From Escherichia coli (lineage in GTDB: Bacteria; Pseudomonadota; Gammaproteobacteria; Enterobacterales; Enterobacteriaceae): 64,000 bases of DNA. Position numbers and translations under genes: made by a program. Shown piece by piece: positions 1 to 20,108 of this stretch (positions are counted from its first letter, which is position 1; every line of letters begins with the position of its first letter). The DNA is taken from the NCBI RefSeq assembly GCF_024298765.1, contig NZ_CP101211.1; one strand, given 5' to 3'. The notes beneath the pieces were generated by a model. It did not search any database. It was not told the origin of the DNA and worked only from the letters and a program-made list of their open reading frames with translations.

Positions 1-75
1 CTCCGTCTTCAATTTGCTACAATGGCGGCGGCAGCCACAGCCTCCGCCCCAACCCATACAGAAGGTGAACACTGA
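1..75 (+). CDS. mrx: 3' end of mrx (MFS protein of mph(A) operon), cut by the window edge
   Basis: Bases 1-1418 are the reverse complement of 13931-15348 (identical ORF translations on opposite strands); mrx ends at 15274 in the full copy, which maps to 75 here. Confidence 0.6.
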   Translation, partial: LRLQFATMAAAATASAPTHTEGEH

Positions 76-659
76 TGCCCCGCCCCAAGCTCAAGTCCGA
101 TGACGAGGTACTCGAGGCCGCCACCGTAGTGCTGAAGCGTTGCGGTCCCATAGAGTTCACGCTCAGCGGAGTAGCAAAGGAGGTGGGGCTCTCCCGCGCA
201 GCGTTAATCCAGCGCTTCACCAACCGCGATACGCTGCTGGTGAGGATGATGGAGCGCGGCGTCGAGCAGGTGCGGCATTACCTGAATGCGATACCGATAG
301 GCGCAGGGCCGCAAGGGCTCTGGGAATTTTTGCAGGTGCTCGTTCGGAGCATGAACACTCGCAACGACTTCTCGGTGAACTATCTCATCTCCTGGTACGA
401 GCTCCAGGTGCCGGAGCTACGCACGCTTGCGATCCAGCGGAACCGCGCGGTGGTGGAGGGGATCCGCAAGCGACTGCCCCCAGGTGCTCCTGCGGCAGCT
501 GAGTTGCTCCTGCACTCGGTCATCGCTGGCGCGACGATGCAGTGGGCCGTCGATCCGGATGGTGAGCTAGCTGATCATGTGCTGGCTCAGATCGCTGCCA
601 TCCTGTGTTTAATGTTTCCCGAACACGACGATTTCCAACTCCTCCAGGCACATGCGTAA
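75..659 (+). CDS. mphR(A): TetR-family macrolide-responsive repressor MphR(A)
   Basis: 194-aa ORF MPRPKLKSDDEVLEAATVVLKRCG..., recognised as MphR(A); identical to the copy at 14690-15274. Confidence 0.9.
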   Translation: MPRPKLKSDDEVLEAATVVLKRCGPIEFTLSGVAKEVGLSRAALIQRFTNRDTLLVRMMERGVEQVRHYLNAIPIGAGPQGLWEFLQVLVRSMNTRNDFSVNYLISWYELQVPELRTLAIQRNRAVVEGIRKRLPPGAPAAAELLLHSVIAGATMQWAVDPDGELADHVLAQIAAILCLMFPEHDDFQLLQAHA

Positions 660-1097
660 ACGGAGGTGTGCAGAGTCCCTGCGGCAGGCGACGAACACGA
701 CCGTCGTCGATTAGTACCGGTACGGTCGGTGGTATCGAAGTCTTGATCACCACTCAGGTCTACGGCTTACAAATGGTGACCATCCCGATACTTGCGTCAG
801 AGCACCGGGCCGATTCTTTGACAGTGAATCACTCCCGTAAGGTTGTGCCGGTGTGGGTGTCCCGGGTCGAGACGATACTCCGCCAATGCGCCCAGCAAAC
901 AACCTGGCCATCGCAGGTGGTGGGGAGCGGTGTGGCGGATGAGTTGGACAAGTTGGTGTAGCAGCACGAGCACGGCGAGATAACATCGCAGGAGTTCGAC
1001 ATGCTCAAGAGACAGCTGATTGCGAATCGCGATGCAGATTCATAACCCGATTGCGGGTTGGCTTCACTCCACCATCACCGAGCAGACTAGCACGGCG

Positions 1098-1418
1098 GGC
1101 TCTGTTGCAAAGATTGGCGGCAGTCAGAGGTAGGCTGTCGCTCTGCGCCGATCAGGCGGCTGCTGCGAAATGGTGGTTGAGCATGCCCATGGCCTCCGTC
1201 AGCGCCGAGGGCCCAATGCCAAAAGCTCTCTCCACAAGGCGCACCTCGCCCCTGATGCCGGGCTGCAGGCACCAGGGGCGAGCCTGTCCTTTGCGCAGGG
1301 CTCGCATGACTTCGAATCCCTTGATCGTGGCATAGGCCGTGGGGATCGATTTGAAACCGCGCACCGGCTTGATCAGTATCTTGAGCTTTCCGTGATCGGC
1401 CTCGATCACGTTATTGAG
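1098..1418 (-). mobile_element. IS6100 3' fragment (about 321 bp), truncated by IS26
   Basis: IS6100 terminal repeat GGCTCTGTTGCAAA at 1098 and IS6100 tnpA C-terminal codons on the minus strand; the identity with the full copy (13372-14251) stops at the IS26 end at 1419. Confidence 0.85.
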
Positions 1419-2200
1419 GGCACTGTTGCAAATAGTCGGTGGTGATAAACTTATCATCCCCTTTTGCTGATGGAGCTGCACATGAACCCATTCAAAGGCC
1501 GGCATTTTCAGCGTGACATCATTCTGTGGGCCGTACGCTGGTACTGCAAATACGGCATCAGTTACCGTGAGCTGCAGGAGATGCTGGCTGAACGCGGAGT
1601 GAATGTCGATCACTCCACGATTTACCGCTGGGTTCAGCGTTATGCGCCTGAAATGGAAAAACGGCTGCGCTGGTACTGGCGTAACCCTTCCGATCTTTGC
1701 CCGTGGCACATGGATGAAACCTACGTGAAGGTCAATGGCCGCTGGGCGTATCTGTACCGGGCCGTCGACAGCCGGGGCCGCACTGTCGATTTTTATCTCT
1801 CCTCCCGTCGTAACAGCAAAGCTGCATACCGGTTTCTGGGTAAAATCCTCAACAACGTGAAGAAGTGGCAGATCCCGCGATTCATCAACACGGATAAAGC
1901 GCCCGCCTATGGTCGCGCGCTTGCTCTGCTCAAACGCGAAGGCCGGTGCCCGTCTGACGTTGAACACCGACAGATTAAGTACCGGAACAACGTGATTGAA
2001 TGCGATCATGGCAAACTGAAACGGATAATCGGCGCCACGCTGGGATTTAAATCCATGAAGACGGCTTACGCCACCATCAAAGGTATTGAGGTGATGCGTG
2101 CACTACGCAAAGGCCAGGCCTCAGCATTTTATTATGGTGATCCCCTGGGCGAAATGCGCCTGGTAAGCAGAGTTTTTGAAATGTAAGGCCTTTGAATAAG
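1419..2200 (+). mobile_element. IS26, lacking the last 38 bp including its right terminal repeat
   Basis: Left repeat GGCACTGTTGCAAA at 1419 and intact tnpA; sequence diverges from the other IS26 copies after TTTGAATAAG at 2200 instead of continuing ACAAAAGGCTGCC...TTTGCAACAGTGCC. Confidence 0.85.
1464..2186 (+). CDS. tnpA: IS26 transposase (supplied ORF has a 6-aa N-terminal extension)
   Basis: Translation [31 protein letters not shown]... matches IS26 Tnp26. Confidence 0.95.
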   Translation: MLMELHMNPFKGRHFQRDIILWAVRWYCKYGISYRELQEMLAERGVNVDHSTIYRWVQRYAPEMEKRLRWYWRNPSDLCPWHMDETYVKVNGRWAYLYRAVDSRGRTVDFYLSSRRNSKAAYRFLGKILNNVKKWQIPRFINTDKAPAYGRALALLKREGRCPSDVEHRQIKYRNNVIECDHGKLKRIIGATLGFKSMKTAYATIKGIEVMRALRKGQASAFYYGDPLGEMRLVSRVFEM

Positions 2201-2226
2201 GAGAGCATGAAAAACCTCGGGGCAGC
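2201..2226 (+). repeat. Left terminal inverted repeat of the ISKra4-family element
   Basis: About 21 of 26 positions match the reverse complement of 5026-5051. Confidence 0.7.
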
Positions 2227-2292
2227 CATCGAATGATGCCATCTACAGGGGTTAAAATAACCACCATCATTTCATAACAATACCTGCTGACT

Positions 2293-2883
2293 ATGAAGAT
2301 CTACGTCATCAAAATAGCAGTTCATGGAGTCAGTCCGATGGTCTGGCGTCGGCTGAGAATTGCTGCCGACACGTCACTGGCCGCGCTTCACTTCATTTTC
2401 CAGATAGTGCAGGGCTGGGGGGACGACCATCTCCATCAATTTCACATTTATGGCAAAGATTACGGTATCTCCTACGAAGGAGGCATCGGTTTTGTCGATA
2501 ATCCGTTCCGGGTCGTGATTGATGATTTTGCTTTTGATGCTGGCGATCGCTTTACCTATGAATACAATTTCTTTGAGCACTGGCTTCATGACATTCGTGT
2601 TGAGGCCATTTATGAAAACTCTACGCTGAAAGCGCCGTTTTGTATAAGCGGCCATGGTATGCCCGGAGCCACAGCTGCGGATGAGTTCGATAAAACCCTG
2701 GCGTTTCTTGAAGCTATCGTTAATGCGGATGATGAAACAACGGTCGGCGAGATCCGCCCTTTTGCTGACGACCTGGATGCTGTCAGGTTCAACCGCCACA
2801 AAATCAACCGGCAACTGAGCAGGCTCGACCTTGCATCTCCGGTACTGGAGCCTGAAGTTATCTGGCTGGGCCGTCGTCGCTGA
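2293..2883 (+). CDS. Passenger protein of the IS (pRiA4b ORF-3-like), function unknown
   Basis: 196-aa ORF inside the IS boundaries, upstream of the recombinase and transposase genes; family name from memory only. Confidence 0.6.
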   Translation: MKIYVIKIAVHGVSPMVWRRLRIAADTSLAALHFIFQIVQGWGDDHLHQFHIYGKDYGISYEGGIGFVDNPFRVVIDDFAFDAGDRFTYEYNFFEHWLHDIRVEAIYENSTLKAPFCISGHGMPGATAADEFDKTLAFLEAIVNADDETTVGEIRPFADDLDAVRFNRHKINRQLSRLDLASPVLEPEVIWLGRRR

Positions 2884-3019
2884 CTGATGTCTATAAAGGT
2901 ATACGTTTTCAGCATGCCTCTCAGATCCCCGAAAAAATGTCTATAAACCTCCCTAAATCAGTGTTTATGGATTATTCTTTAAATCTCTATGATGTTTAAA
3001 GACCTTCCGGAGGTTTTGC

Positions 3020-3592
3020 GTGCAATATGCCTACATCAGGGTAAGCTCGGCCGATCAGAATACGGCCCGTCAGGAAGAGGCATTGTCAAAGGCGGGTTTT
3101 CAGCCTGATAAAATTTGTGTTGAGCATGCCAGCGCGAAGGACACAAACCGCCCGGGGTTACAGGAACTCCTGGGGCAATTACGCCCTGGTGATACGCTTC
3201 TGGTTCATTCCATCGATCGCCTTTGCCGGAATATGTCGGATATGTGCGCTGTCACCACCCGGCTTCGTGACCAGGGCGTTACCCTTATTTTTCTGAAAGA
3301 GCAGCTGACGTTCAGCGCCGGCACAAACAATCCGATGCAGGAACTGCAGCTGCACATGATGTCGGCATTCAGCCAGTTTGAACGAGCCTTACTGAAGGAA
3401 AGGCAGGCCGACGGCATCGCCGCGAAAAAAGCACGGGGTGAAAAAACAGGGCGCCCCGGCGCCGATATCAAAAAGATCCAGGAAATTGACGCACTCAGAA
3501 GCAGAGGGGTCAGGCTCAGGATCGCCTGCGACCATGCGGGCCTTGGCGTTTCCACATATTATAAGCTTCGTCACCAGATGAACAACCAGTAG
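3020..3592 (+). CDS. Serine recombinase (resolvase/invertase family)
   Basis: N-terminus YAYIRVSSADQN with the catalytic Ser context and a C-terminal helix-turn-helix; 190 aa. Confidence 0.8.
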   Translation: MQYAYIRVSSADQNTARQEEALSKAGFQPDKICVEHASAKDTNRPGLQELLGQLRPGDTLLVHSIDRLCRNMSDMCAVTTRLRDQGVTLIFLKEQLTFSAGTNNPMQELQLHMMSAFSQFERALLKERQADGIAAKKARGEKTGRPGADIKKIQEIDALRSRGVRLRIACDHAGLGVSTYYKLRHQMNNQ

Positions 3593-3625
3593 CCGGGAGA
3601 TAGTCATCCACCACAGCAGGAGGCA

Positions 3626-5020
3626 ATGATGCAACTGACGCTCCAGATAGTCATCACCGATGAATCAGGCTCCAGTCGAACGGAGGAACTGATGACAATC
3701 CAGAAATCAGGGGAGACCCGGAACGACATCGGATTATCGGTGTCAGAATCCAAGCTGTTGCTGAATACGGTCCAGCAGTCGGTGGTCCAGCTGCAGGCAG
3801 ACGAATATACTCAACACCATATCCGGTGCCCTCACTGCCTTGCTGCGCGCAGAATCAAAGGCAAACAGAAAATACGGTACCGGACGCTGTTTGGCGTTAT
3901 TCCGGTATCCGGGCTTCGGGTGTACCGGTGCCGTTGTGAAGAGAGTGATACAAAGACAGTCAGTTTGCTCAGCGACTGGGCCGGCGATTATTCTCACCCG
4001 GCACTGAAATATATTGAAACCCGCTGGGCCTCGATGATCTCCTATGAAATGACGACTCGTCTGCTGAAAGATATTCTGCCGGTGGGCCACAGCCTGAATG
4101 CCTCAACGGTGAGGAATCATTTATGCCAGGTGGCGCAGCGTCTTGACGCTGAGGCTGAAGCTCATTCAGGTTTTCTTTCCGGCTGCCCCCGCGACTGGGG
4201 GAACCTGCCCAGGCCAGGAAAACCGCTTGTGGTGGGTATAGATGGTGGTTATGTTCGCGATCGGGATGACAAAAAGCGTAATTTTGAAATTATTGCCGGG
4301 AAGTCTTTTTCCGTTGGTGCGCCTGCTGACACCCGCCGCTTCGGTTTTGTTCAGAAGGATGACTGTCATCCGGAACGCAGGCTCATGACCCACCTTTCAG
4401 CGCAGGGAATGCAGGCCAACCAGCAGATATTTTTTCTGTCCGACGGCGCGGATAATCTCAGGGACCTCCAGTTCGGTATGTACCCTGAGTCAACGCATGT
4501 GCTGGACTGGTTTCATATCACCATGAGGCTGAAGGTGCTCATGCAATATGCCCGGGGACTGCTGGTATCAGATCCAGAGGCGGGGAGTAAAGTTCTGGCA
4601 CTGCTGGAAAGCATTAAACGATATCTCTGGCATGGCAATGTTGTCGCTGCGCTGGAACATATTGATAATTGCGTTATGTATTGCGATGACCCTGAACTCA
4701 GCTATCCTAGCCTGAAATCCCTGCAAAAACATCTGGATGAAATGTATACCTACATCCGGAATAATAAGATGATGATCCCAAACTACGGCGAAATGCGTCG
4801 GTACGGAGAGCCGGTATCAACCGCGTTTGTGGAATCCACGATCAATGAAGTGATCGCCAGACGAATGGCCAAAAAGCAGCAGATGCAGTGGAGCAGAAAA
4901 GGGGCTCATTATTTGTTACAGACCCGGACCGCCGTTTTGAATAACGAACTGCAGGATAAATTTGTCTGCTGGTATCCGGGTTTTCAAAGTGACGGGAAGG
5001 GACCAGCGATGGCAGCATAG
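3626..5020 (+). CDS. ISKra4-family DDE transposase
   Basis: 464-aa ORF with an N-terminal Cys cluster (CPHC...CRC) and a transposase-like core; sits against the right inverted repeat. Confidence 0.75.
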   Translation: MMQLTLQIVITDESGSSRTEELMTIQKSGETRNDIGLSVSESKLLLNTVQQSVVQLQADEYTQHHIRCPHCLAARRIKGKQKIRYRTLFGVIPVSGLRVYRCRCEESDTKTVSLLSDWAGDYSHPALKYIETRWASMISYEMTTRLLKDILPVGHSLNASTVRNHLCQVAQRLDAEAEAHSGFLSGCPRDWGNLPRPGKPLVVGIDGGYVRDRDDKKRNFEIIAGKSFSVGAPADTRRFGFVQKDDCHPERRLMTHLSAQGMQANQQIFFLSDGADNLRDLQFGMYPESTHVLDWFHITMRLKVLMQYARGLLVSDPEAGSKVLALLESIKRYLWHGNVVAALEHIDNCVMYCDDPELSYPSLKSLQKHLDEMYTYIRNNKMMIPNYGEMRRYGEPVSTAFVESTINEVIARRMAKKQQMQWSRKGAHYLLQTRTAVLNNELQDKFVCWYPGFQSDGKGPAMAA

Positions 5021-5025
5021 CTCAC

Positions 5026-5051
5026 GCTGCCCCAATATTTTTTATGCTCTC
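5026..5051 (-). repeat. Right terminal inverted repeat of the ISKra4-family element
   Basis: Reverse complement matches 2201-2226 at about 21 of 26 positions. Confidence 0.7.
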
Positions 5052-5481
5052 GGTCGTATGGAAGCTGGACCGCCTCGGTCGTGATCTTCGTCATCTCATT
5101 AATACAGTGCACGACCTGACCGCGAGGGGGACCGGTCTGAAAGTGCTGACCGGTCACGGGGCGACTATCGACACAACAACGGCCGCTGGCAAGCTTGTCT
5201 TCGGTATCTTTGCCGCACTGGCGGAGTTTGAGCGCGAACTGATTGCTGAAAGAACGACTGCAGGTCTGGCATCAGCAAGAGCCCGTGGGCGGAACGGCGG
5301 CCGACCTTATAAAATGACGCCAGTCAAACTGCGACTGGCAATGGCATCAATGGGACAATCAGAAACAAAGGTCAGTACGCTATGCCAGGAACTTGGGATA
5401 ACCCGGCAAACTTTGTACAGGCATATTTCCCCTGTTGGTCAACTGCGGGCGGACGGGATCAAGCTGCTCAACCGTGGATAA
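5052..5481 (+). pseudogene. tnpR: Resolvase gene fragment lacking its 5' end including the catalytic Ser region
   Basis: Reading frame begins VVWKLDRLGRD immediately after the IS right repeat; C-terminal helix-turn-helix present, N-terminal about 60 codons absent. Confidence 0.7.
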
Positions 5482-5538
5482 TTTGAACGGACGGAAAAAT
5501 CTGGGGTTCCGGCGTAGTACCCCTATCACCTCCACATT

Positions 5539-5552
5539 TTTGCAACAGTGCC
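5539..5552 (-). repeat. Isolated IS26-type 14-bp terminal repeat (IS6-family end remnant)
   Basis: Exact TTTGCAACAGTGCC; the adjacent inner sequence resembles but does not match IS26. Confidence 0.4.
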
Positions 5553-5802
5553 TTATAAATGGCAGCCTTATGTTTACTTGCCAAGATGGGCTACCATATG
5601 ATGTTTTATACTGAGCAATATTAATATTATCTTTAATGGAAAAATTAAGCCCACTAAGTGACCCACTGCTATATGGCTCTATTGTGAAGACGCCTGAGGG
5701 TAAAAATTTATACATGGTTGTCCCTATGTCTATTATTGCAAGGTTGACAATATTATTCGTTTTATAAATTTGAGCGTTTAAAATCACACATCAAAGCAAT
5801 TA

Positions 5803-5866
5803 GTCAGGATAAACAACAATACCCAGTGCTTCGAGAATCAGTTCTTGCTGCCAGGCTGCAATTTTG
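5803..5866 (-). pseudogene. qnrS1: qnrS1 3' fragment (last 20 codons plus stop)
   Basis: Minus-strand translation KIAAWQQELILEALGIVVYPD* continues the 5' fragment at 8397-8994 across the 8-bp duplication. Confidence 0.85.
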
Positions 5867-6686
5867 GGCACTGTTGCAAAGTTAGCGATGAGGCAGCCTT
5901 TTGTCTTATTCAAAGGCCTTACATTTCAAAAACTCTGCTTACCAGGCGCATTTCGCCCAGGGGATCACCATAATAAAATGCTGAGGCCTGGCCTTTGCGT
6001 AGTGCACGCATCACCTCAATACCTTTGATGGTGGCGTAAGCCGTCTTCATGGATTTAAATCCCAGCGTGGCGCCGATTATCCGTTTCAGTTTGCCATGAT
6101 CGCATTCAATCACGTTGTTCCGGTACTTAATCTGTCGGTGTTCAACGTCAGACGGGCACCGGCCTTCGCGTTTGAGCAGAGCAAGCGCGCGACCATAGGC
6201 GGGCGCTTTATCCGTGTTGATGAATCGCGGGATCTGCCACTTCTTCACGTTGTTGAGGATTTTACCCAGAAACCGGTATGCAGCTTTGCTGTTACGACGG
6301 GAGGAGAGATAAAAATCGACAGTGCGGCCCCGGCTGTCGACGGCCCGGTACAGATACGCCCAGCGGCCATTGACCTTCACGTAGGTTTCATCCATGTGCC
6401 ACGGGCAAAGATCGGAAGGGTTACGCCAGTACCAGCGCAGCCGTTTTTCCATTTCAGGCGCATAACGCTGAACCCAGCGGTAAATCGTGGAGTGATCGAC
6501 ATTCACTCCGCGTTCAGCCAGCATCTCCTGCAGCTCACGGTAACTGATGCCGTATTTGCAGTACCAGCGTACGGCCCACAGAATGATGTCACGCTGAAAA
6601 TGCCGGCCTTTGAATGGGTTCATGTGCAGCTCCATCAGCAAAAGGGGATGATAAGTTTATCACCACCGACTATTTGCAACAGTGCC
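5867..6686 (-). mobile_element. IS26 (820 bp, complete)
   Basis: 14-bp terminal repeats at both ends, with tnpA on the minus strand. Confidence 0.95.
5919..6641 (-). CDS. tnpA: IS26 transposase
   Basis: Identical translation to the other IS26 tnpA copies. Confidence 0.95.
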   Translation of the reverse strand: MLMELHMNPFKGRHFQRDIILWAVRWYCKYGISYRELQEMLAERGVNVDHSTIYRWVQRYAPEMEKRLRWYWRNPSDLCPWHMDETYVKVNGRWAYLYRAVDSRGRTVDFYLSSRRNSKAAYRFLGKILNNVKKWQIPRFINTDKAPAYGRALALLKREGRCPSDVEHRQIKYRNNVIECDHGKLKRIIGATLGFKSMKTAYATIKGIEVMRALRKGQASAFYYGDPLGEMRLVSRVFEM

Positions 6687-6754
6687 CGCTTAAAAATAAT
6701 AAAAGCAGACTTGACCTGATAGTTTGGCTGTGAGCAATTATGTGCTTAGTGCAT

Positions 6755-6825
6755 CTAACTTTGTTTTAGGGCGACTGCCCTGCTGCGTAACATCGTTGCT
6801 GCTCCATAACATCAAACATCGACCC
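6755..6825 (-). other. attI1 recombination site of a class 1 integron, apparently with no cassette
   Basis: 5'-conserved segment ...GTCGCCCTAAAACAAAGTTAGAT followed on the cassette strand by what I recall as the start of the qacE cassette, cut by IS26 at 6686; boundaries approximate. Confidence 0.6.
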
Positions 6826-6894
6826 ACGGCGTAACGCGCTTGCTGCTTGGATGCCCGAGGCATAGACTGTACAAAAAAACAGTCATAACAAGCC

Positions 6895-7576
6895 ATGAAA
6901 ACCGCCACTGCGCCGTTACCACCGCTGCGTTCGGTCAAGGTTCTGGACCAGTTGCGTGAGCGCATACGCTACTTGCATTACAGTTTACGAACCGAACAGG
7001 CTTATGTCCACTGGGTTCGTGCCTTCATCCGTTTCCACGGTGTGCGTCACCCGGCAACCTTGGGCAGCAGCGAAGTCGAGGCATTTCTGTCCTGGCTGGC
7101 GAACGAGCGCAAGGTTTCGGTCTCCACGCATCGTCAGGCATTGGCGGCCTTGCTGTTCTTCTACGGCAAGGTGCTGTGCACGGATCTGCCCTGGCTTCAG
7201 GAGATCGGAAGACCTCGGCCGTCGCGGCGCTTGCCGGTGGTGCTGACCCCGGATGAAGTGGTTCGCATCCTCGGTTTTCTGGAAGGCGAGCATCGTTTGT
7301 TCGCCCAGCTTCTGTATGGAACGGGCATGCGGATCAGTGAGGGTTTGCAACTGCGGGTCAAGGATCTGGATTTCGATCACGGCACGATCATCGTGCGGGA
7401 GGGCAAGGGCTCCAAGGATCGGGCCTTGATGTTACCCGAGAGCTTGGCACCCAGCCTGCGCGAGCAGCTGTCGCGTGCACGGGCATGGTGGCTGAAGGAC
7501 CAGGCCGAGGGCCGCAGCGGCGTTGCGCTTCCCGACGCCCTTGAGCGGAAGTATCCGCGCGCCGGGCATTCCTGGC
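6895..7576 (+). pseudogene. intI1: Class 1 integrase gene truncated at its 3' end by IS26 (about 227 codons kept)
   Basis: Translation [44 protein letters not shown]... matches IntI1; reading frame runs into the IS26 repeat at 7577. Confidence 0.9.
6982..7010 (-). promoter_or_regulatory. Integron cassette promoter Pc, hybrid variant (-35 TGGACA, -10 TAAACT, 17-bp spacer)
   Basis: On the cassette strand: TGGACAtaagcctgttcggttcgTAAACT inside intI1. Confidence 0.7.
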
Positions 7577-8396
7577 GGCACTGTTGCAAATAGTCGGTGG
7601 TGATAAACTTATCATCCCCTTTTGCTGATGGAGCTGCACATGAACCCATTCAAAGGCCGGCATTTTCAGCGTGACATCATTCTGTGGGCCGTACGCTGGT
7701 ACTGCAAATACGGCATCAGTTACCGTGAGCTGCAGGAGATGCTGGCTGAACGCGGAGTGAATGTCGATCACTCCACGATTTACCGCTGGGTTCAGCGTTA
7801 TGCGCCTGAAATGGAAAAACGGCTGCGCTGGTACTGGCGTAACCCTTCCGATCTTTGCCCGTGGCACATGGATGAAACCTACGTGAAGGTCAATGGCCGC
7901 TGGGCGTATCTGTACCGGGCCGTCGACAGCCGGGGCCGCACTGTCGATTTTTATCTCTCCTCCCGTCGTAACAGCAAAGCTGCATACCGGTTTCTGGGTA
8001 AAATCCTCAACAACGTGAAGAAGTGGCAGATCCCGCGATTCATCAACACGGATAAAGCGCCCGCCTATGGTCGCGCGCTTGCTCTGCTCAAACGCGAAGG
8101 CCGGTGCCCGTCTGACGTTGAACACCGACAGATTAAGTACCGGAACAACGTGATTGAATGCGATCATGGCAAACTGAAACGGATAATCGGCGCCACGCTG
8201 GGATTTAAATCCATGAAGACGGCTTACGCCACCATCAAAGGTATTGAGGTGATGCGTGCACTACGCAAAGGCCAGGCCTCAGCATTTTATTATGGTGATC
8301 CCCTGGGCGAAATGCGCCTGGTAAGCAGAGTTTTTGAAATGTAAGGCCTTTGAATAAGACAAAAGGCTGCCTCATCGCTAACTTTGCAACAGTGCC
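7577..8396 (+). mobile_element. IS26 (820 bp, complete)
   Basis: 14-bp terminal repeats at 7577 and 8383-8396. Confidence 0.95.
7622..8344 (+). CDS. tnpA: IS26 transposase
   Basis: Identical translation to the other IS26 tnpA copies. Confidence 0.95.
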   Translation: MLMELHMNPFKGRHFQRDIILWAVRWYCKYGISYRELQEMLAERGVNVDHSTIYRWVQRYAPEMEKRLRWYWRNPSDLCPWHMDETYVKVNGRWAYLYRAVDSRGRTVDFYLSSRRNSKAAYRFLGKILNNVKKWQIPRFINTDKAPAYGRALALLKREGRCPSDVEHRQIKYRNNVIECDHGKLKRIIGATLGFKSMKTAYATIKGIEVMRALRKGQASAFYYGDPLGEMRLVSRVFEM

Positions 8397-9553: not shown

Positions 9554-9870
9554 GACGGTTCACTGACGGCTGTTGCATCGGGCGAGGAAGTGGTGCCGGC
9601 CTCCGAACTCGCTGCCGCCAATAAGCAAATTCGCGAACTCCAGCGCCTTCTGGGCAAAAAGACGATGGAAGCCGAGATACTCAAAGAGGCCGTGGAGTTC
9701 GGCCGGGCAAAAAAATGGATTGCGCATGCGCCCTCGTTGCCTGGGAACGACGAATAAGCGACGTTTGCAGAAGTCTTGGCGTGTCGCGTGCGCAGTTGAG
9801 CATTCGGGTTCACCGGCCATCTGACTGACAGGATCGCAGACGGCAGCCCCGTTCTGACGATACCACCGTA

Positions 9871-10413
9871 TTGTCCCGGATAAACATGGCGGTGGCTGAC
9901 CTGCCGACGTATGGTTATCGCCGTGTGTGGGCGCTGCTGCGACGGGAGTCGGAGCGGGACGGCCTGCCTGTGGTTAATGCAAAGCGGGTGTATCGCATTA
10001 TGAGAACGCATAATCTGCTTCTTGAACGTAAACCCGCTGATCCTTGCCGTAAGCGGGCCCATAAGGGGCGCGTAGCAGTAGCGGAAAGTAACCGGCGCTG
10101 GTGCTCAGATGGCTTTGAGTTCCGCTGTGATAATGGCGAAAAGCTGCGGGTGACCTTCGCGCAGGACTGCTGCGACAGGGAGATCATTGACTGGGCAGCG
10201 AGCACCGGAGGCTATGACAAAGAAACGGTGCAGGATGTCATGCTGGGTGCGGTGGAAAAACGCTTCGGAAGGCAGTTGCCAACAGTGCCGGCGTTCGCCC
10301 GGTTGCTGGGACTGGAGCCTTGTACGACAGCAGTGCGAAGCCCGGAAAGCAATGGCATAGCAGAAAGCTTCGTGATGACGATAAAACGGGACTACATCAG
10401 CATCAGGATTTTA
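9871..10413 (+). pseudogene. IS2-like orfB (integrase core), C-terminally truncated
   Basis: ...[23 protein letters not shown] then the Tn3-family repeat; the true orfB start lies upstream in the -1 frame. Confidence 0.7.
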
Positions 10414-10451
10414 GGGGTCTGACGCTCAGTGGAACGAAAACTCACGTTAAG
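10414..10451 (-). repeat. 38-bp terminal inverted repeat of Tn2/Tn3 (tnpA end)
   Basis: GGGGTCTGACGCTCAGTGGAACGAAAACTCACGTTAAG; the tnpA stop lies inside it. Confidence 0.9.
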
Positions 10452-13371
10452 CAACGTTTTCTGCCTCTGACGCCTCTTTTAATGGTCTCAGATGTCCTTT
10501 GGTCACCAGTTCTGCCAGCGTGAAGGAATAATGGCCGAGCATATTGATATGTCCGTGGCAAAGCGGGGAGAGGCGTGCGATATCTTCATCATTCAGTGTT
10601 TCACCCTGCGCCCGGAGATGATCCAGGGCTGCCTGCATATAAATAGTGTTCCATAACACGACGGCGTTAGTGACCAGCCCCAGTGTGCCCAGTTGATCTT
10701 CCTGACCGTCGGTATATCGTTTTCTTATCTCACCTTTTTGACCGTGACAGATGGCTCTGGCAACGGCATGGCGACTTTCTCCCCGATTAAGCTGGGTCAG
10801 AATGCGCCGGCGGTAATCTTCATCATCAATATAATTAAGCAGATACAGCGTTTTGTTGATGCGCCCCACTTCAATGATTGCCTGAGTCAGTCCGGAAGGA
10901 CGTTCACTTTTCAGCAATGAACGGACCAGCACTGAAACCTGTACTTTGCCCAGCTTCAGGGAGCCAGCGGTCCGGATCATTTCGTCCCACTGAAGGACTA
11001 TTTTTCGGGGATCTGATTGCCCTCTGGCAATATCATTCAGCACGCCATAGTCGGCATCATGGTCCATTCGCCAGAAAACCGAAGCACCGGCATCAGCCAG
11101 GCGTGGAGAAAACTGGTATCCCAGCAGCCAGAAAAGGCCAAAGACAAGTTCGCTGGCACCTGCTGTATCGGTCATAATTTCGGTTGGATTCAGCCCGGTC
11201 TCCTGTTCCAGAAGACCTTCCAGCACAAAGATAGAGTCCCTCAGCGTCCCCGGTATAACGATGCCATGAAAGCCGGAATACTGATCGGACACAAAGTTGT
11301 ACCAGGTGATCCCTCTGTTATTACCAAAGTATTTGCGGTTCGGTCCGGCATTGATTGTTCTGACTGGCGTAACAAAGCGCATTCCATCTGCAGATGCCAC
11401 TTCTCCTCCACCCCATATCTGTGCCAGTGGCAGCGTTGCCTGAAAATCAACCAGTCTGGCATTAGCGCTGGTGATAGTTTCAGCCCGCAGATAGTTCGCT
11501 TTTGTCCAGTTCAGCCGGTGTCGGGTCAGTGCAGGAACATTTGATCTGATCAGTGGTTCCAGACCGATATTGCAGGCTTCAGCCATCAGCACGGCGCTGA
11601 TGCTGACGGGCAGATCATCAACTCTGGCACTGGCTTCACTAGCATGGAAAAACTCATCAGCAAATCCGGTATGGGCGTTAATTTCGAGCAGCAACTCCGT
11701 TAAATCCACCGGAGGGAGTAGATCACTGATCATTTTGCTCAGTCGTTTCAGACTGTCCGGCTCATCAAGACTGGCGAGGGGAGAAATTGTCAACCGGGGC
11801 TTCGGGCCAGAAACATCGAGTTCGACAGCCTCATTTTCGCAAAGACGTGCAGCAACCTGTCTGTAACGACTATCAAGCTGATGACCCAGAGATTTTATTG
11901 CTTCCTGCGGGTCTGTCGGGTGCCCCAAAGAACGATAAACCTTAATCCGGTTTGCCTGCCAGTCAGCACCCTGTAGTAATCTTGCACGAGGATCTCCCCA
12001 CCGGTTACTGCCGGTAACGTAGACATCCCTCCGCCTCAGACTATCCTGCAGTTTACTGAGAAAGCAGAGCGTGTATCCCCTGCGGGTGATATGTTTTTCC
12101 TTGTTAATCACCAGCCGTTTCCATGACCGACTGATAATTTCCGTTGGTGCGTCGTCAAAAAACTGCCGCCGTGAGCTGAACTCCCGGCTGAGGTAGTCAC
12201 AGGCATTCAGAGTGGTAACCCCGGCAGGTGCGGATGAAAATTTAACGGTATTCAGCAGATGGGGCAGGAAACGACGAACGCGCCCGTACTGCTCCACCAT
12301 TTCTTCATGAAAATTATCGTCTGAGGGCCGGGCAATTTCACGGACAAGCGTGATGATTTCAGCCAGCTTTTGCCTTGGGATGTAGCTGAACACCTCAGCA
12401 CGAATCGATTCGTCCGGTGTTTCTTCTTTCAGCAGGTACGAACATGCGCTGGCGAGCGCCAATGCAGATTTATCCAGATCCTTCAGCGAGCGGAGCCGTT
12501 TTTTCTGCCCAATCTTTCTGGCGTCACGGATGATAACGGCCAGCATGGCGTCCAGAACGTCCAATGCATCATCCAGCGCCAGCGTTTCCCATGCAAGGAC
12601 AAAGGCAACCAGAACCGCCATCCTTTTCTGCGGTGACATCCTGGCAATATTGAACACCGAAGTCATACCAGCATAACGTGCGAGATTTTTCAGGCGCACA
12701 GCCGGGAGTGTACTCAGGTTTTCAGCATGCAGGCCAAAATCGTTCAGAGTTTTCCAGCGTTCAATTGCTTCATTAAACGCCGGACCACTGATGGTCACAG
12801 GGCCCTTTTTCAGTGATTCCAGTAAAGACAGGCGGCTGCAATCAGTTGGCCCCAGCAGCATCTCCAGCTGTGAACGCTGTTCGGCTGACGGTATCAGTGC
12901 CAGTTTGTTCCACAGGCGCAACGTCGCCTTTTCCCTTACCTCTGAAATCAACCGGGTCAGCGTAGTGGCTCCGGGGAGAATAATACGATGTTGCATAAGC
13001 CACCCTGTCGCCAGATCGAAAAGCAGGCCAGGACGTTCGTTGCTTATCCAGCTCCGGGTATATAAAAGACGGGTAAGGCGAAATGTCCAGGGCCAGGCAA
13101 ATTCACGATACTGATAGTGCTGACGTATCAGCGCTGCATGCTCACGGCGGGTATTTTCCCTCTGACCGTATTCTGCAAGAACGGTGATATCACGAATCCC
13201 GAGCTGTCTGGCGGTAAAATGCCGGACGCCGGAAGGAATATGATTCATATCGGTGAGGAAGGTGCCCAGAAAACGGACACATCCAATTTGCAGGGCAATG
13301 CCCAGACGGTTGTGATCACCTCTGCTTTTTCCGATAAATTCCTTGTCTGCTTCATCAAGGTGAAAATATCG
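10447..13371 (-). pseudogene. tnpA: Tn2/Tn3-family transposase lacking about 27 N-terminal codons (IS6100 insertion)
   Basis: Native sequence begins RYFHLDEADKEFIGKSRGDHNRLGIALQ...; the first 25 codons of the supplied ORF are IS6100 sequence. Confidence 0.85.
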
Positions 13372-14251
13372 GGCTCTGTTGCAAAAATCGTGAAGCTTGA
13401 GCATGCTTGGCGGAGATTGGACGGACGGAACGATGACGGATTTCAAGTGGCGCCATTTCCAGGGTGATGTGATCCTGTGGGCGGTGCGCTGGTATTGTCG
13501 CTATCCGATCAGCTATCGCGACCTTGAGGAAATGCTGGCGGAACGCGGCATTTCGGTCGACCATACGACGATCTATCGCTGGGTCCAGTGCTACGCCCCG
13601 GAGATGGAGAAGCGGCTGCGCTGGTTCTGGCGGCGTGGCTTTGATCCGAGCTGGCGCCTGGATGAAACCTACGTCAAGGTGCGGGGCAAGTGGACCTACC
13701 TGTACCGGGCAGTCGACAAGCGGGGCGACACGATCGATTTCTACCTGTCGCCGACCCGCAGCGCCAAGGCAGCGAAGCGGTTCCTGGGCAAGGCCCTGCG
13801 AGGCCTGAAGCACTGGGAAAAGCCTGCCACGCTCAATACCGACAAAGCGCCGAGCTATGGTGCAGCGATCACCGAATTGAAGCGCGAAGGAAAGCTGGAC
13901 CGGGAGACGGCCCACCGGCAGGTGAAGTATCTCAATAACGTGATCGAGGCCGATCACGGAAAGCTCAAGATACTGATCAAGCCGGTGCGCGGTTTCAAAT
14001 CGATCCCCACGGCCTATGCCACGATCAAGGGATTCGAAGTCATGCGAGCCCTGCGCAAAGGACAGGCTCGCCCCTGGTGCCTGCAGCCCGGCATCAGGGG
14101 CGAGGTGCGCCTTGTGGAGAGAGCTTTTGGCATTGGGCCCTCGGCGCTGACGGAGGCCATGGGCATGCTCAACCACCATTTCGCAGCAGCCGCCTGATCG
14201 GCGCAGAGCGACAGCCTACCTCTGACTGCCGCCAATCTTTGCAACAGAGCC
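13372..14251 (+). mobile_element. IS6100 (880 bp, complete)
   Basis: Terminal repeats GGCTCTGTTGCAAA at 13372 and at 14238-14251. Confidence 0.9.
13397..14197 (+). CDS. tnpA: IS6100 transposase (true start may be the Met at 13433)
   Basis: ...[39 protein letters not shown]..., an IS6-family transposase. Confidence 0.9.
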   Translation: MSMLGGDWTDGTMTDFKWRHFQGDVILWAVRWYCRYPISYRDLEEMLAERGISVDHTTIYRWVQCYAPEMEKRLRWFWRRGFDPSWRLDETYVKVRGKWTYLYRAVDKRGDTIDFYLSPTRSAKAAKRFLGKALRGLKHWEKPATLNTDKAPSYGAAITELKREGKLDRETAHRQVKYLNNVIEADHGKLKILIKPVRGFKSIPTAYATIKGFEVMRALRKGQARPWCLQPGIRGEVRLVERAFGIGPSALTEAMGMLNHHFAAAA

Positions 14252-14689
14252 CGCCGTGCTAGTCTGCTCGGTGATGGTGGAGTGAAGCCAACCCGCAATC
14301 GGGTTATGAATCTGCATCGCGATTCGCAATCAGCTGTCTCTTGAGCATGTCGAACTCCTGCGATGTTATCTCGCCGTGCTCGTGCTGCTACACCAACTTG
14401 TCCAACTCATCCGCCACACCGCTCCCCACCACCTGCGATGGCCAGGTTGTTTGCTGGGCGCATTGGCGGAGTATCGTCTCGACCCGGGACACCCACACCG
14501 GCACAACCTTACGGGAGTGATTCACTGTCAAAGAATCGGCCCGGTGCTCTGACGCAAGTATCGGGATGGTCACCATTTGTAAGCCGTAGACCTGAGTGGT
14601 GATCAAGACTTCGATACCACCGACCGTACCGGTACTAATCGACGACGGTCGTGTTCGTCGCCTGCCGCAGGGACTCTGCACACCTCCGT

Positions 14690-15274
14690 TTACGCATGTG
14701 CCTGGAGGAGTTGGAAATCGTCGTGTTCGGGAAACATTAAACACAGGATGGCAGCGATCTGAGCCAGCACATGATCAGCTAGCTCACCATCCGGATCGAC
14801 GGCCCACTGCATCGTCGCGCCAGCGATGACCGAGTGCAGGAGCAACTCAGCTGCCGCAGGAGCACCTGGGGGCAGTCGCTTGCGGATCCCCTCCACCACC
14901 GCGCGGTTCCGCTGGATCGCAAGCGTGCGTAGCTCCGGCACCTGGAGCTCGTACCAGGAGATGAGATAGTTCACCGAGAAGTCGTTGCGAGTGTTCATGC
15001 TCCGAACGAGCACCTGCAAAAATTCCCAGAGCCCTTGCGGCCCTGCGCCTATCGGTATCGCATTCAGGTAATGCCGCACCTGCTCGACGCCGCGCTCCAT
15101 CATCCTCACCAGCAGCGTATCGCGGTTGGTGAAGCGCTGGATTAACGCTGCGCGGGAGAGCCCCACCTCCTTTGCTACTCCGCTGAGCGTGAACTCTATG
15201 GGACCGCAACGCTTCAGCACTACGGTGGCGGCCTCGAGTACCTCGTCATCGGACTTGAGCTTGGGGCGGGGCAT
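14690..15274 (-). CDS. mphR(A): TetR-family repressor MphR(A)
   Basis: Identical to the 75-659 copy. Confidence 0.9.
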   Translation of the reverse strand: MPRPKLKSDDEVLEAATVVLKRCGPIEFTLSGVAKEVGLSRAALIQRFTNRDTLLVRMMERGVEQVRHYLNAIPIGAGPQGLWEFLQVLVRSMNTRNDFSVNYLISWYELQVPELRTLAIQRNRAVVEGIRKRLPPGAPAAAELLLHSVIAGATMQWAVDPDGELADHVLAQIAAILCLMFPEHDDFQLLQAHA

Positions 15275-16512
15275 CAGTGTTCACCTTCTGTATGGGTTGG
15301 GGCGGAGGCTGTGGCTGCCGCCGCCATTGTAGCAAATTGAAGACGGAGCGAGAGTAGAGCCACGAGCCCCGCAAACACGGCCGATACAACGAGGCCAGGG
15401 AGCGGACCAGCAAGGTCGACAAACGCGCCGGCCGCAAGCATAACCATGGGCGAGGCTGACAGCATCACCGCCGAGACCGTGCCGAGTACCCGGCCGAGAA
15501 GTTCTGGCGGCGTGCGGTTGTAGATGGCAGCGTTGAGAATGGGAGAGACTGAGCCGGTCAGCAGTCCCACGAGCGCGCCCAACAACATCAGCACCGGCAC
15601 GCCTGGCAACTGTGAAAGCAGAAGCGAGCCCACCGCAGAGCCACAAAATGCCACCGCCAGCCAGTTCTGCGCTGATATCCGGGCGCCGACCGACGCATGA
15701 ATGGCAATGCCAAGGAGACCACCAGCCCCCATCATTGAGGAGAACAGCCCGAGCTCTGCTACTTGGCGTCCTGCATCTACAAACAGCGCAGGCATGATGA
15801 CGCTGCCGTTGGCGCCAACGATGCCCACGAAGATCATCACTATACCAAAGAGAGGGCGCAGCAGGGGTTCGCTCCAGAGAAAAGCGACGCCGGCGCGCAT
15901 GGAGAGAGTCGCCGTCGTGGTCATCGTCCGAGCGGCACGCGCGGGAAGCACCCACGCGCCGAGCAGACCTGCAAGGACGGAGCAGAACGCCGTCAGCCCG
16001 AGCGTTGGCGCAGCGCCAAGCAGGCCGATTGCGGCCCCCCCAAGGGCCGGGCCACCTAGAATCGCGACGTTCCCGATCACCGCTTTCAGTGACGAGACGC
16101 GCTCAACGGAGAGCCCGGCGACGTGGCCGAGTTTGGGCAGCTCACTGTCCTGCGCGGCCATACCGGGTGCGTCGAACGCGGCACCGAGCACCACGCAAGC
16201 GATCAGCCCAGTGTTCGAGAGGGCGCCAACGGCATCGAGCAGTGGGATGCTCGCCATGGCCACGCCGCCCACCACACCCGAGATCAATGCGACGGGCGCG
16301 CGCCCGAACCGATCGACGAGGCCACCACCAACCCACGCGCCGATGATGGTCGCGATGACGCTGCTAGCGGCCGTGGCGCCCGCCCAGGCCGCGCTCTTTG
16401 TATGAGACAGGACGAACCATGGAAGCGCGAGGGCCGCCACCGCGTTGCCGATCCGGAAGAGAAAGGTCGCCGCGAACAGCGTCGCGAGCGGGCTATATCG
16501 ACGTTCGCTCAT
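15274..16512 (-). CDS. mrx: Mrx, MFS-type membrane protein of the mph(A) operon
   Basis: 412-aa hydrophobic ORF between mph(A) and mphR(A) with overlapping stop and start codons. Confidence 0.85.
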   Translation of the reverse strand: MSERRYSPLATLFAATFLFRIGNAVAALALPWFVLSHTKSAAWAGATAASSVIATIIGAWVGGGLVDRFGRAPVALISGVVGGVAMASIPLLDAVGALSNTGLIACVVLGAAFDAPGMAAQDSELPKLGHVAGLSVERVSSLKAVIGNVAILGGPALGGAAIGLLGAAPTLGLTAFCSVLAGLLGAWVLPARAARTMTTTATLSMRAGVAFLWSEPLLRPLFGIVMIFVGIVGANGSVIMPALFVDAGRQVAELGLFSSMMGAGGLLGIAIHASVGARISAQNWLAVAFCGSAVGSLLLSQLPGVPVLMLLGALVGLLTGSVSPILNAAIYNRTPPELLGRVLGTVSAVMLSASPMVMLAAGAFVDLAGPLPGLVVSAVFAGLVALLSLRLQFATMAAAATASAPTHTEGEH

Positions 16513-17414
16513 TCCGCTGCGGCGAGCTGCGCCTTCGCCGCAGCGAGGTACTCTTCGTTACCCGAGTCGAGGGCGAAGAGTGCGTAGGTGACCGCCCCGA
16601 ACGCAAGGCGCTCCGCGATGTGGTGGGCGAGCCGCGGCCACACCCGGCCACCGGCCGCTTCATACGTGAGGAGGAGCTTCGCGAGCCCCTCTTCACCAAA
16701 GACCATAAGGTGCGCGGCCATGTCGATGGCAGGGTCATCAACGCGGGCCTCGCTCCAGTCGATCATCCCGCTGACGCGCTCCGTGTTGTCGATGAGCACA
16801 TGGCCCACGTAGAGATCGCCATGCACCACCACGGAGAAATCTGGCCACGACGAATCGTCGTCGAGCCAGCGCTGCCACCGGTGGAGGCGCTTGTCGTTCA
16901 CCACGAACTCGCGTCGGACGCGGTCAACGTCGTCGGCCACCTTCTGACGGGCCTGCGTCGGTGTACGGATGAGCATCCCCGCATCCACGGCGGCGGAAAT
17001 GGGGACGGCATGCAGGGCGGCGAGCGCGGTCGCGAAGCTCTCCGCGAAGACCTCCGAGTCCTGCGGCACGACCCAGTCGGGCGTGGACGAACCAGGCTGG
17101 ATGACCATCGCAGTCGAGTCTTCGAGCATGGGATAGGCAACGAGCTCGGCGTTGGCCACGCGCCAGTCCGGCACCGCGAACGGCAGGCGATTCTTGAGCA
17201 TTGCCAGCACCCGCGCCTCTGGTTCGACCTTCGCGCTTACCTCGGCTCGGCGCGGGATGCGCAGCACCCACCGACGTCCATCGTCGACGGTGGCGATCAC
17301 GATCCTATAGTCGAGCCCAAGCTCATTGACAGTCAGCGGGCCATGGAGCTTGAGCCCATGTCGGGCTGCAAGTGCGTACAGTTGGGAGGTATCGGCGGTC
17401 GTGACTACGGTCAT
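16509..17414 (-). CDS. mph(A): Macrolide 2'-phosphotransferase Mph(A)
   Basis: 301-aa ORF MTVVTTADTSQLYALAARHGLKLHG...HGDLYVGHVLID..., an APH-like kinase fold. Confidence 0.9.
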   Translation of the reverse strand: MTVVTTADTSQLYALAARHGLKLHGPLTVNELGLDYRIVIATVDDGRRWVLRIPRRAEVSAKVEPEARVLAMLKNRLPFAVPDWRVANAELVAYPMLEDSTAMVIQPGSSTPDWVVPQDSEVFAESFATALAALHAVPISAAVDAGMLIRTPTQARQKVADDVDRVRREFVVNDKRLHRWQRWLDDDSSWPDFSVVVHGDLYVGHVLIDNTERVSGMIDWSEARVDDPAIDMAAHLMVFGEEGLAKLLLTYEAAGGRVWPRLAHHIAERLAFGAVTYALFALDSGNEEYLAAAKAQLAAAE

Positions 17415-17446
17415 GATTCACTCCTGAGGGCTTGACGGGTTTAGCC

Positions 17447-17480
17447 ACCTAAATGTAACAGTCACGTCGGTTATATTCAA
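17447..17480 (-). promoter_or_regulatory. mph(A) promoter and MphR(A) operator region (pseudo-palindrome)
   Basis: AATATAACCGACGTGACTGTTACATT pseudo-palindrome directly upstream of mph(A); limits approximate. Confidence 0.45.
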
Positions 17481-17483
17481 TCC

Positions 17484-19369: not shown

Positions 19370-19399
19370 TTTAAGACCCTTAATTGTTGGGATTTGGCT

Positions 19400-19962: not shown

Positions 19963-19967
19963 CCTGG

Positions 19968-20040: not shown

Positions 20041-20108
20041 CGGCGTAACGCGCTTGCTGCTTGGATGCCCGAGGCATAGACTGTACAAAAAAACAGTCAT
20101 AACAAGCC

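Follow-up and report, generated by a model that had tools for sequence, protein, structure and literature searches.

Inverted copies of an mphR(A)-IS6100 module flank a disrupted qnrS1 segment in an IncHI2 resistance region: a probable product of plasmid recombination

Organization of the resistance region

We analyzed a window of 64,000 nucleotides of Escherichia coli DNA. The IncHI2 backbone starts at position 21374, and many IncHI2 plasmids match the stretch 21400-46000, which encodes TrhH, a MobH relaxase, and TraD, at 100% identity from end to end. This transfer and maintenance backbone identifies the window as the resistance region of an IncHI2 multidrug-resistance plasmid. The features to the left of the backbone are as follows.

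1-1418, plus strand: left arm of the inverted repeat, matching the reverse complement of 13931-15348 at every base, its outer side cut by the window edge
1-74: 3' end of the left mrx(A), 100% identical to the annotated gene in pDETEC65, pEC71, and pHN8C65
75-659: left mphR(A), intact, 100% identical to the annotated gene in the same three plasmids
1098-1418: IS6100 remnant of 321 bp, with a single terminal inverted repeat at 1098 and the transposase gene reduced to its last 267 bp
1419-2200, plus strand: IS26 copy A (IS26-A), with IRL and tnp26 intact and the final 38 bp, including IRR, missing
2201-5866, plus strand: left qnrS1 context, 100% identical to annotated regions of pHN8C65 and pDETEC65
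2293-2883: pRiA4b ORF-3 family gene (ORF3)
3020-3592: resolvase gene
3626-5020: ISKpn19 transposase gene (ISKra4-family transposase match)
5044-5481: truncated resolvase gene
5800-5866, minus strand: last 67 bp of qnrS1
5867-8396: 2,530-bp unit within qnrS1, 100% identical to pHN8C65 (L005 19528-22057)
5867-6686, minus strand: IS26 copy B, 820 bp
6687-7576: attI1/ΔintI1 fragment of 890 bp (IntI1 residues 1-228 of 337)
7577-8396, plus strand: IS26 copy C, 820 bp
8397-13371, minus strand: right qnrS1 context, part of a stretch (8397-18303) that is contiguous and 100% identical in pHN8C65
8397-8994, minus strand: first 598 bp of qnrS1 (QnrS residues 1-200 of 218)
about 9389-10404, minus strand: IS2-like pseudogene
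about 10447-13371, minus strand: truncated Tn3/Tn2 tnpA (Tn3-family transposase, 1154 bits)
13372-14251, plus strand: complete IS6100, 880 bp, with inverted repeats at 13372 and 14251 and 100% identity to the annotated transposase gene
13931-15348, minus strand: right arm, comprising the inner part of IS6100, a spacer, mphR(A), and the 3' end of mrx(A)
14690-15274, minus strand: right mphR(A), 100% DNA identity to the annotated WP_001137892.1 locus
15274-16512, minus strand: right mrx(A), 100% DNA identity to the annotated WP_000004159.1 locus
16509-17414, minus strand: mph(A), recognized by NF000254 Mph(A) with 685 bits (cutoff 550) and matching the annotated gene at 100% DNA identity
17484-18303, minus strand: IS26 copy D (IS26-D), with 0 mismatches to the other full copies
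18304-21373, minus strand: truncated class 1 integron and boundary IS26
18304-18596: ΔcmlA
18917-19369: arr-2
19480-19953: dfrA14
19970-20553, plus strand: attI1/ΔintI1
20554-21373: IS26 copy E, at the boundary to the backbone

The stretch 13372-18303 is a complete IS26-mph(A)-mrx(A)-mphR(A)-IS6100 unit with all of its defining parts, in which mrx(A) and mphR(A) directly follow mph(A) and share its strand, IS26 lies upstream, and IS6100 lies past mphR(A). This unit has been described as widespread in plasmids and chromosomes of Enterobacterales (PMC9927516, PMC13041382), and the right copy is 100% identical to annotated examples. The left copy, which runs from the first base of the window, retains both mphR(A) and the IS6100 end and is, so far as the window reaches, a known variant that ends in IS26. 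The window differs from the known unit in having two inverse copies with unequal IS6100 ends, a 321-bp remnant in one and 880 bp of intact sequence in the other. The integron order and the backbone junction in 18304-21373 are as in pDETEC65.

Extent and exactness of the inverted repeat

The first-pass annotation had described bases 1-1418 as the exact reverse complement of 13931-15348. Direct comparison gave 0 mismatches over the 1418 nt, a result confirmed by a repeat search and by self-BLAST, and the two fully complementary arms are separated by 12,512 nt. The longest repeat that chance would yield in a 64-kb window is ~16 bp. The match ends sharply on its inner side, at 1418/1419 where IS26 starts (GGCACTGTTGCAAA) and at 13930/13931 within IS6100, with zero extension beyond. 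On its outer side the left arm stops where the window does, rather than at a point of divergence, making 1418 bp a minimum repeat length.

Each arm contains 74 bp of the 3' end of mrx(A), mphR(A), a spacer, and the 321 bp of IS6100 closest to mphR(A). In the complete IS6100, these inner 321 bp (13931-14251) form part of the right arm, and the outer 559 bp (13372-13930) occur just once in the window by self-BLAST. The arm comparison thus upholds the earlier proposal that a second, inversely oriented macrolide module enters from the left window edge with its IS6100 cut by IS26. IS26-A cuts IS6100 on its left, at 1418/1419, and adjoins the qnrS1 context on its right. Beyond mphR(A), the module runs on as mrx-mph(A)-IS26 in pDETEC65 and pEC71-IncHI2, and by analogy with these two relatives the left arm probably continues past the window through the equivalent mrx(A)-mph(A)-IS26 stretch, which would make the arms ~4.4 kb long. 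That the two arms are 100% identical is a weak clue to the age of the duplication, as 2808 of 2816 plasmid records carry this segment at 99% identity or higher.

A compound IS26 unit interrupts qnrS1

The DNA between the arms had been annotated as a qnrS1 and integron segment, and neither part stands as a whole. The qnrS1 gene is broken after 598 bp by the 2,530-bp IS26-ΔintI1-IS26 insertion, and the integron sequence between the arms amounts to an 890-bp intI1/attI1 fragment; the true cassette array, dfrA14-arr-2-ΔcmlA, sits at 18304-20553, beyond the repeat. An 8-bp direct duplication, CAATTTTG, flanks the inserted unit (5859-5866 and 8397-8404), the two qnrS1 halves overlap by these 8 bp, and intact qnrS1 contains the 8-mer once. 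With its inverse IS26 pair and direct target duplication, the unit at 5867-8396 has the form of a compound transposon with inversely oriented IS26 copies, for which Tn6023 is the described precedent (PMC6657655).

The 2,530-bp unit is common among plasmids, and no 8-bp target duplications were found around it in 11 other plasmid contexts. When window 5300-9300 was used as the query for the junctions of qnrS1 with IS26, all matches were in multiple pieces, and the insertion was present in no other record searched. Canonical IS26 routes of one or two steps to this 8-bp-flanked unit were considered and set aside: neither insertion of a single IS26 with intramolecular inversion nor homologous exchange would leave both target copies outermost. 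On a larger scale, an IS26 pseudo-compound transposon or translocatable unit spanning 1419-18303 was also rejected, as IS26-A (plus strand) and IS26-D (minus strand) are inverse and IS26-A is without IRR.

Each module copy carries the junction of a different plasmid lineage

Two arrangements of the unit recur among related plasmids. In the T-type, the usual IncHI2 form, an IS26-truncated IS6100 attaches the unit to the qnrS1 segment on the ORF3 side. In the Y-type, found in pHN8C65-like plasmids, an intact IS6100 links the unit to the ΔTn3 end of the same segment. The left junction of the window, ΔIS6100|ΔIS26-ORF3-ISKpn19-qnrS1 (breakpoints 1418/1419 and 2200/2201), recurs unchanged in 51 PLSDB records and 22 E. 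coli records, most of them IncHI2 plasmids, and because these records share both breakpoints, the junction is older than the present plasmid. An exact-match scan for the ΔIS6100|IS26 junction across GTDB representative genomes found 0 matches. Plasmids of the pHN8C65 type have an identical right junction, ΔTn3 tnpA|intact IS6100, in one contiguous stretch, and 8397-15400 is contiguous in five of the six PLSDB records with 80% or more of that stretch.

The closest T-type relatives are pDETEC65 (NZ_CP116107.1) and pEC71-IncHI2 (NZ_CP085623.1), in which the backbone, the IS26-ΔintI1-dfrA14-arr-2-ΔcmlA-IS26-mph(A) block, and the ΔIS6100|ΔIS26-ORF3-ISKpn19-qnrS1 junction are identical to those of the window. 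Window segments 1-5866 and 13931-23000 match pDETEC65 at 100% and 99.9%, and the bases that correspond to window positions 1419 and 13931 are adjacent there (L006 25592|25593). Both plasmids have one module and an intact qnrS1, whereas the window has two modules and a split qnrS1. Their Tn3 fragment stops at the equivalent of window position 13243, in ΔwbuC-blaCTX-M-55-ISEcp1; in the window, by contrast, the fragment runs into intact IS6100 and the second module.

The Y-type plasmids are pHN8C65 (NZ_CP125886.1) and four similar plasmids of 86-100 kb, which are collinear with window 1419-18303 minus the qnrS1 insertion. Segments 2201-5866 and 8397-18303 are 100% identical between this type and the window, and two mismatches fall in IS26-A. 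These plasmids also carry the 2,530-bp IS26-ΔintI1-IS26 unit, adjoining mph(A). They differ from the window in having an intact qnrS1, another backbone, and, to the left of IS26-A, an SDR oxidoreductase gene in place of a module.

No record in PLSDB or among the complete E. coli genomes searched contained both junctions together. Likewise, coverage of 1-19000 stayed below 80% in every PLSDB record, and the two E. coli records that reached this level begin at 1418/1419. To judge from these sequence comparisons, the two module copies are two distinct, pre-existing versions of the unit, each with the junction of a different plasmid lineage, and a duplication in situ does not account for them.

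Origin of the inverted pair

We consider it probable that the inverted repeat arose by recombination of an IncHI2 plasmid with a pHN8C65-like element within shared sequence, followed by one flip. The T-type IncHI2 relatives and the pHN8C65-type plasmids share an identical qnrS1 segment of ~8.5 kb (2201-5866 plus 8397-13243) and the module of ~4.4 kb. Since this perfectly identical segment and module are common to both putative parents, a crossover can yield an inverse module pair. A single homologous crossover, or an IS26-mediated fusion followed by homologous recombination, would leave inverse modules flanking the qnrS1 segment, and a second crossover between the inverted arms would then flip the 12.5-kb center to give the isomer seen in the window. 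We infer the order and the nature of these recombination events. The presence in the window of a 2,530-bp unit 100% identical to that of the pHN8C65 type fits such a donor, though the unit is a frequent one.

No SNPs by which a crossover could be placed occur in the shared qnrS1 segment, where the window, pDETEC65, pEC71, and pHN8C65 have one and the same sequence; relative to pHN8C65, the window differs only at 1418, 1439, and 2072, all in or beside IS26-A. Tnp26-targeted fusion at IS26, or a multi-step path with deletions, would be further routes that leave the same sequence as the one proposed. We read the inverted repeat as an ordinary mosaic produced by recombination, and it implies no new element, gene, or mechanism.

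The shared stretches on which this recombination would depend are also those that could mislead an assembler. The second module could be false, the assembly being a chimera, through shared segments, of a T-type IncHI2 plasmid and a pHN8C65-like plasmid or of a mixed population. All junctions in 1-21373 except the qnrS1 insertion are known separately from T-type or Y-type records, the identical stretches are long (~8.5 kb with IncHI2 relatives, 4.4 kb), no other record searched has the combined arrangement, and the left arm lies at the window edge. Against this, the qnrS1 segment has an insertion of its own, seen in none of the relatives searched, that marks one specific molecule, and both ends of the segment enter a module from the IS6100 side, which is impossible with a single module copy. 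A false path would need to cross the T-type module twice, in opposite directions, and we regard an artifact as unlikely.

An origin within one molecule was also weighed, in which replicative intramolecular transposition of IS26, IS6100, or the whole unit inverted the DNA between the copies. IS26 is known to invert DNA ‘in trans’ by this means (He et al. 2015, PMC4471558; IS6 family review, PMC7986276), and 1-21373 contains five IS26 copies in both orientations. As in the regions described for that process, inverse IS26 copies and inverted segments occur together in a multidrug-resistance region, but the window is without the defining signatures. Such an event duplicates the insertion sequence alone, yet the duplicated DNA here comprises 1,097 bp of mrx, mphR, and spacer (1-1097, at least this much being non-IS DNA) and 321 bp of IS6100, and does not include IS26. 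The nine IS26 flanks of the window (TTATTGAG, CAATTTTG, CGCTTAAA, TTCCTGGC, CAATTTTG, TTCAATCC, AGAGCGAG, GATCAGTG, and ACGCAAAG) contain no reverse-complement 8-bp pair. Together, the duplicated non-IS DNA and the absence of such flanks led us to reject an inversion made by IS26 as the origin, and the part of inverters that the first-pass annotation had given to the IS26 copies has no signature at their flanks. Moreover, the left ΔIS6100|IS26 junction is present in more than 70 other records and so was not made here, and the two IS6100 ends are unequal (321 bp against 880 bp). Taken as a whole, inversion and duplication in situ is a highly improbable account.

The direction of change could also be reversed. 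A double module could be ancestral, with the T- and Y-types derived from it by module loss through IS26-adjacent deletion or through insertion of ISEcp1-blaCTX-M-55 with deletion. The window does contain all junctions of both types, and the intact outer end of IS26-A could drive adjacent deletions. However, the double form was seen once, against 51 plus 22 T-type and five Y-type records; the two types reside on unrelated backbones (IncHI2 of ~260 kb and plasmids of ~88-100 kb); and the origin of the inverted pair itself would still require an explanation. We therefore find an ancestral double form very unlikely.

Our preferred reading, recombination between the two lineages, makes the region a clear worked example of how recombination within common stretches can bring together two linkages of the same resistance genes that had formed independently, the merged linkages giving inverted repeats that in turn permit a segment to flip. 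The practical value is modest. The plasmid probably has two copies of the azithromycin-resistance operon, and the disruption of qnrS1 means that gene-presence calls for quinolone resistance may mislead. The inverted arms would also make short-read assembly of the region difficult and leave its orientation ambiguous.

Flipping of the central segment and comparison with other multi-copy plasmids

The further suggestion that the arms can invert the intervening DNA is mechanistically reasonable, and an in-silico flip of 1419-13930 restores the usual T-type arrangement of IncHI2 plasmids. The same multidrug region lies in opposite orientations in pEC71 and pDETEC65, and the 890-bp center of the IS26-ΔintI1-IS26 unit is found both ways round relative to its flanks in other plasmids. 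At the level of sequence comparison, these orientations mark flips at inverted repeats as routine events in this plasmid family. The arms would still be a substrate for RecA-dependent flipping, and both isomers may coexist. A stronger version, in which the 12.5-kb qnrS1 segment is an active flipping cassette with two isomers and the IS26(-)-ΔintI1-IS26(+) unit moved in one step by way of its outer IRR ends, seems to us doubtful. The standard IS6 cointegrate model makes no provision for the one-step movement of an inverse IS26 pair by its outer ends.

Among PLSDB records that bear mphR(A), at most ~5% have multiple copies. Like the window, pEQ2 (NC_023277.2) and pE16EC0256-3 (CP088572.1) carry more than one copy of the unit in an IS26-rich region. 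Their copies are direct repeats, as expected of IS26 translocatable-unit or tandem events, whereas those of the window are inverted.

An inverted repeat bearing two module copies

By direct comparison, the reverse complement of 13931-15348 equals 1-1418 with 0 mismatches, and a repeat search, with self-BLAST in concordance, found the same pair of arms again with 12,512 nt in between. The three comparisons agree and so confirm the exact inverted repeat claimed in the first-pass annotation. The inner ends are sharp, with 0 bases of extension beyond 1418 or ahead of 13931; because the left arm runs to the window edge, the arms are at least 1,418 bp long. The second, inversely oriented macrolide module that had been proposed at the left edge, with its IS6100 cut by IS26, is likewise present, a 321-bp IS6100 remnant adjoining IS26-A, the leftmost of five IS26 copies (A to E).

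Features of positions 1-21373 and the adjoining backbone
1-74, 3' end of mrx(A)
75-659, mphR(A)
1098-1418, IS6100 remnant, 321 bp, one IR, transposase gene down to its last 267 bp
1419-2200 (+), IS26-A, without the last 38 bp and IRR; tnp26 intact
2201-5866, ORF3, resolvase, ISKpn19, Δresolvase, last 67 bp of qnrS1
5867-6686 (-), IS26-B
6687-7576, attI1/ΔintI1 fragment, 890 bp
7577-8396 (+), IS26-C
8397-8994 (-), first 598 bp of qnrS1
about 9389-13371, ΔIS2, then ΔTn3 tnpA ending at 13371
13372-14251, complete IS6100
14690-15274 (-), mphR(A)
15274-16512 (-), mrx(A)
16509-17414 (-), mph(A)
17484-18303 (-), IS26-D
18304-20553, ΔcmlA, arr-2, dfrA14, attI1/ΔintI1
20554-21373 (-), IS26-E
21374 onward, IncHI2 backbone

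A probe of mphR(A) plus spacer hit 2,951 places in 2,816 PLSDB records; multi-copy records therefore make up at most ~5%. Two multi-copy plasmids were inspected, pEQ2 and pE16EC0256-3; both hold direct repeats, whereas the copies here are inverted. On both counts an inverted pair is a rarer product of well-known processes.

Separate histories of the two copies

On the right is the canonical IS26-mph(A)-mrx(A)-mphR(A)-IS6100 unit, reported from many species and replicons (PMC9927516; PMC13041382), whereas the left-hand copy, over its part in the window, is a variant with IS6100 cut by IS26. The junction of this variant (T-type: mphR(A)-ΔIS6100/ΔIS26/ORF3, 900-2700) occurs without interruption or sequence difference in 51 PLSDB records and 22 complete E. 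coli genomes, carried mostly by IncHI2 plasmids of ~260 kb, and 1-5866 matches the IncHI2 plasmids pDETEC65 (NZ_CP116107.1) and pEC71-IncHI2 (NZ_CP085623.1) at 100%. The junction with intact IS6100 (Y-type: qnrS1-ΔIS2-ΔTn3/IS6100-mphR(A), 8397-15400) forms one uninterrupted stretch in five 86-100-kb PLSDB plasmids; in pHN8C65 (NZ_CP125886.1), a single 9,907-bp block corresponds to 8397-18303 at 100% identity. No PLSDB record covers at least 80% of 1-19000, the stretch with both junctions, and the two E. coli records with such coverage begin at 1418/1419, without the left arm. Judged by these matches, the left and right copies differ in history. The truncated IS26-A junction to the ORF3/qnrS1 context occurs in both IncHI2-type and pHN8C65-type relatives and is for that reason older than either arrangement.

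Origin of the inverted pair

In pDETEC65 the order is blaCTX-M-55-ΔTn3-qnrS1-ISKpn19-ORF3-ΔIS26-ΔIS6100-mphR-mrx-mph(A)-IS26-ΔcmlA-arr-2-dfrA14-ΔintI1-IS26-backbone, with the backbone as in the window and a 99.9% match to 13931-23000. There, base 1419 (other strand) directly adjoins base 13931 (pDETEC65 25592|25593), so reversing the centre (1419-13930) in silico restores, next to the backbone, the order usual in IncHI2 plasmids; on the side away from the backbone, the reversal gives the pHN8C65 arrangement.

The qnrS1 segment (2201-5866, 8397-13243) and the 4.4-kb module (13931-18303) are ~100% identical in IncHI2 relatives and 100% in pHN8C65, with the module joined to one end of the qnrS1 segment in T-type molecules and to the other end in Y-type molecules. 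One homologous crossover in either shared stretch would fuse the molecules and leave a module at each end of the qnrS1 segment, mutually inverted; a second, in the other inverted-repeat pair, would yield the isomer present in the window, the order of the two being immaterial to the product. The left arm would then be expected to run through mph(A) to IS26, so that each arm would measure 4,373 bp, with donor-type DNA further out. We infer that recombination between T-type and Y-type molecules most likely made the inverted pair, although comparison of the window with its relatives found no SNP marking a crossover position. The 2,530-bp IS26-ΔintI1-IS26 unit of the pHN8C65 type is present at 100% identity, which fits a pHN8C65-like donor; the unit is common, with up to 448 PLSDB records covering at least 80% of it.

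Replicative inversion in situ by IS26 (or IS6100) does not fit. Such inversion by IS26 duplicates the IS alone and leaves reverse-complement 8-bp flanks (PMC7986276; PMC4471558), whereas the duplicated DNA here includes 1,097 bp outside any IS, the nine IS26 flanks include no reverse-complement pair, and the left junction, being present in the 51 PLSDB and 22 E. coli records, predates the plasmid. A false second module created by mis-assembly is less probable: all junctions but one do occur separately in T- or Y-type records, but the qnrS1 segment bears a private insertion, found in none of the relatives searched, and at both ends it runs into the IS6100 side of the module, an arrangement impossible with a single module copy. 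Record counts and the unrelated backbones of T and Y make it unlikely that the double form was their ancestor. The window is a new arrangement of known modules, accounted for by recombination between known configurations, and the first-pass interpretation holds in part.

Inversion between inverse repeats

The ~20-kb IS26-bounded multidrug region is oriented oppositely in pEC71-IncHI2 and pDETEC65 beside the same umuDC backbone flank; by sequence, a large segment has here been inverted in nature between inverse IS26 copies. In 11 other plasmids, flanks of the IS26-ΔintI1-IS26 unit recur on either side as reverse complements (GTAAAGGC/GCCTTTAC, AAAAATAG/CTATTTTT, CGAGTGGG/CCCACTCG); the centre between these 820-bp inverted IS26 copies therefore flips in nature. 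Together with the in-silico reversal, these cases make it plausible that the arms could invert the centre in this plasmid.

qnrS1 and integron remnants

The segment between the arms had been described as carrying qnrS1 and an integron. qnrS1 is there, split after 598 of its 657 bp, but integron DNA there amounts only to the intI1/attI1 fragment of 890 bp, and the dfrA14-arr-2-ΔcmlA cassette array is not enclosed by the arms. The gene (8397-8994, 5800-5866) is broken after codon 199 of 218, and its 5' part continues into IS26 as a predicted 234-aa ORF (8290-8994). Gene-presence screening could still report qnrS1 despite this truncated, fused predicted protein.

The interrupter is the 2,530-bp unit IS26(-)/890-bp ΔintI1 fragment/IS26(+), with an 8-bp direct repeat, CAATTTTG, on both sides (5859-8404 with the repeats included). 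This is a true target duplication: the two pieces of qnrS1, 598 and 67 bp long, share 8 bp and together make up 657 bp; the 11 other contexts checked have no flanking duplication around the unit. Under the standard IS6 model, mobile IS26 compound structures should have directly repeated IS copies (PMC7986276), and the 8-bp-flanked inverted-IS26 unit could not be derived by one or two canonical IS26 steps. Inverse IS26 copies have a published precedent in Tn6023 (PMC6657655).

The attI1/intI1 5' region forms an exact 584-bp direct repeat (6756-7339 and 19970-20553). IS26 truncates the two ΔintI1 fragments at 7576 and 20553, respectively, and their attI1-side sequences differ; by sequence, they derive from two different integron remnants.

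Many IncHI2 plasmids match 21400-46000 over its full length at 100% identity. The interval 39599-39743 contains imperfect direct repeats (77%) together with palindromic repeats (82%), within a ~700-bp intergenic stretch (39253-39956) of backbone shared identically by many IncHI2 plasmids. Between Δresolvase and qnrS1, at 5539-5552, 14 bp match the IS26 terminal inverted repeat (TTTGCAACAGTGCC) without an IS26 body; this orphan match is identical in relatives.
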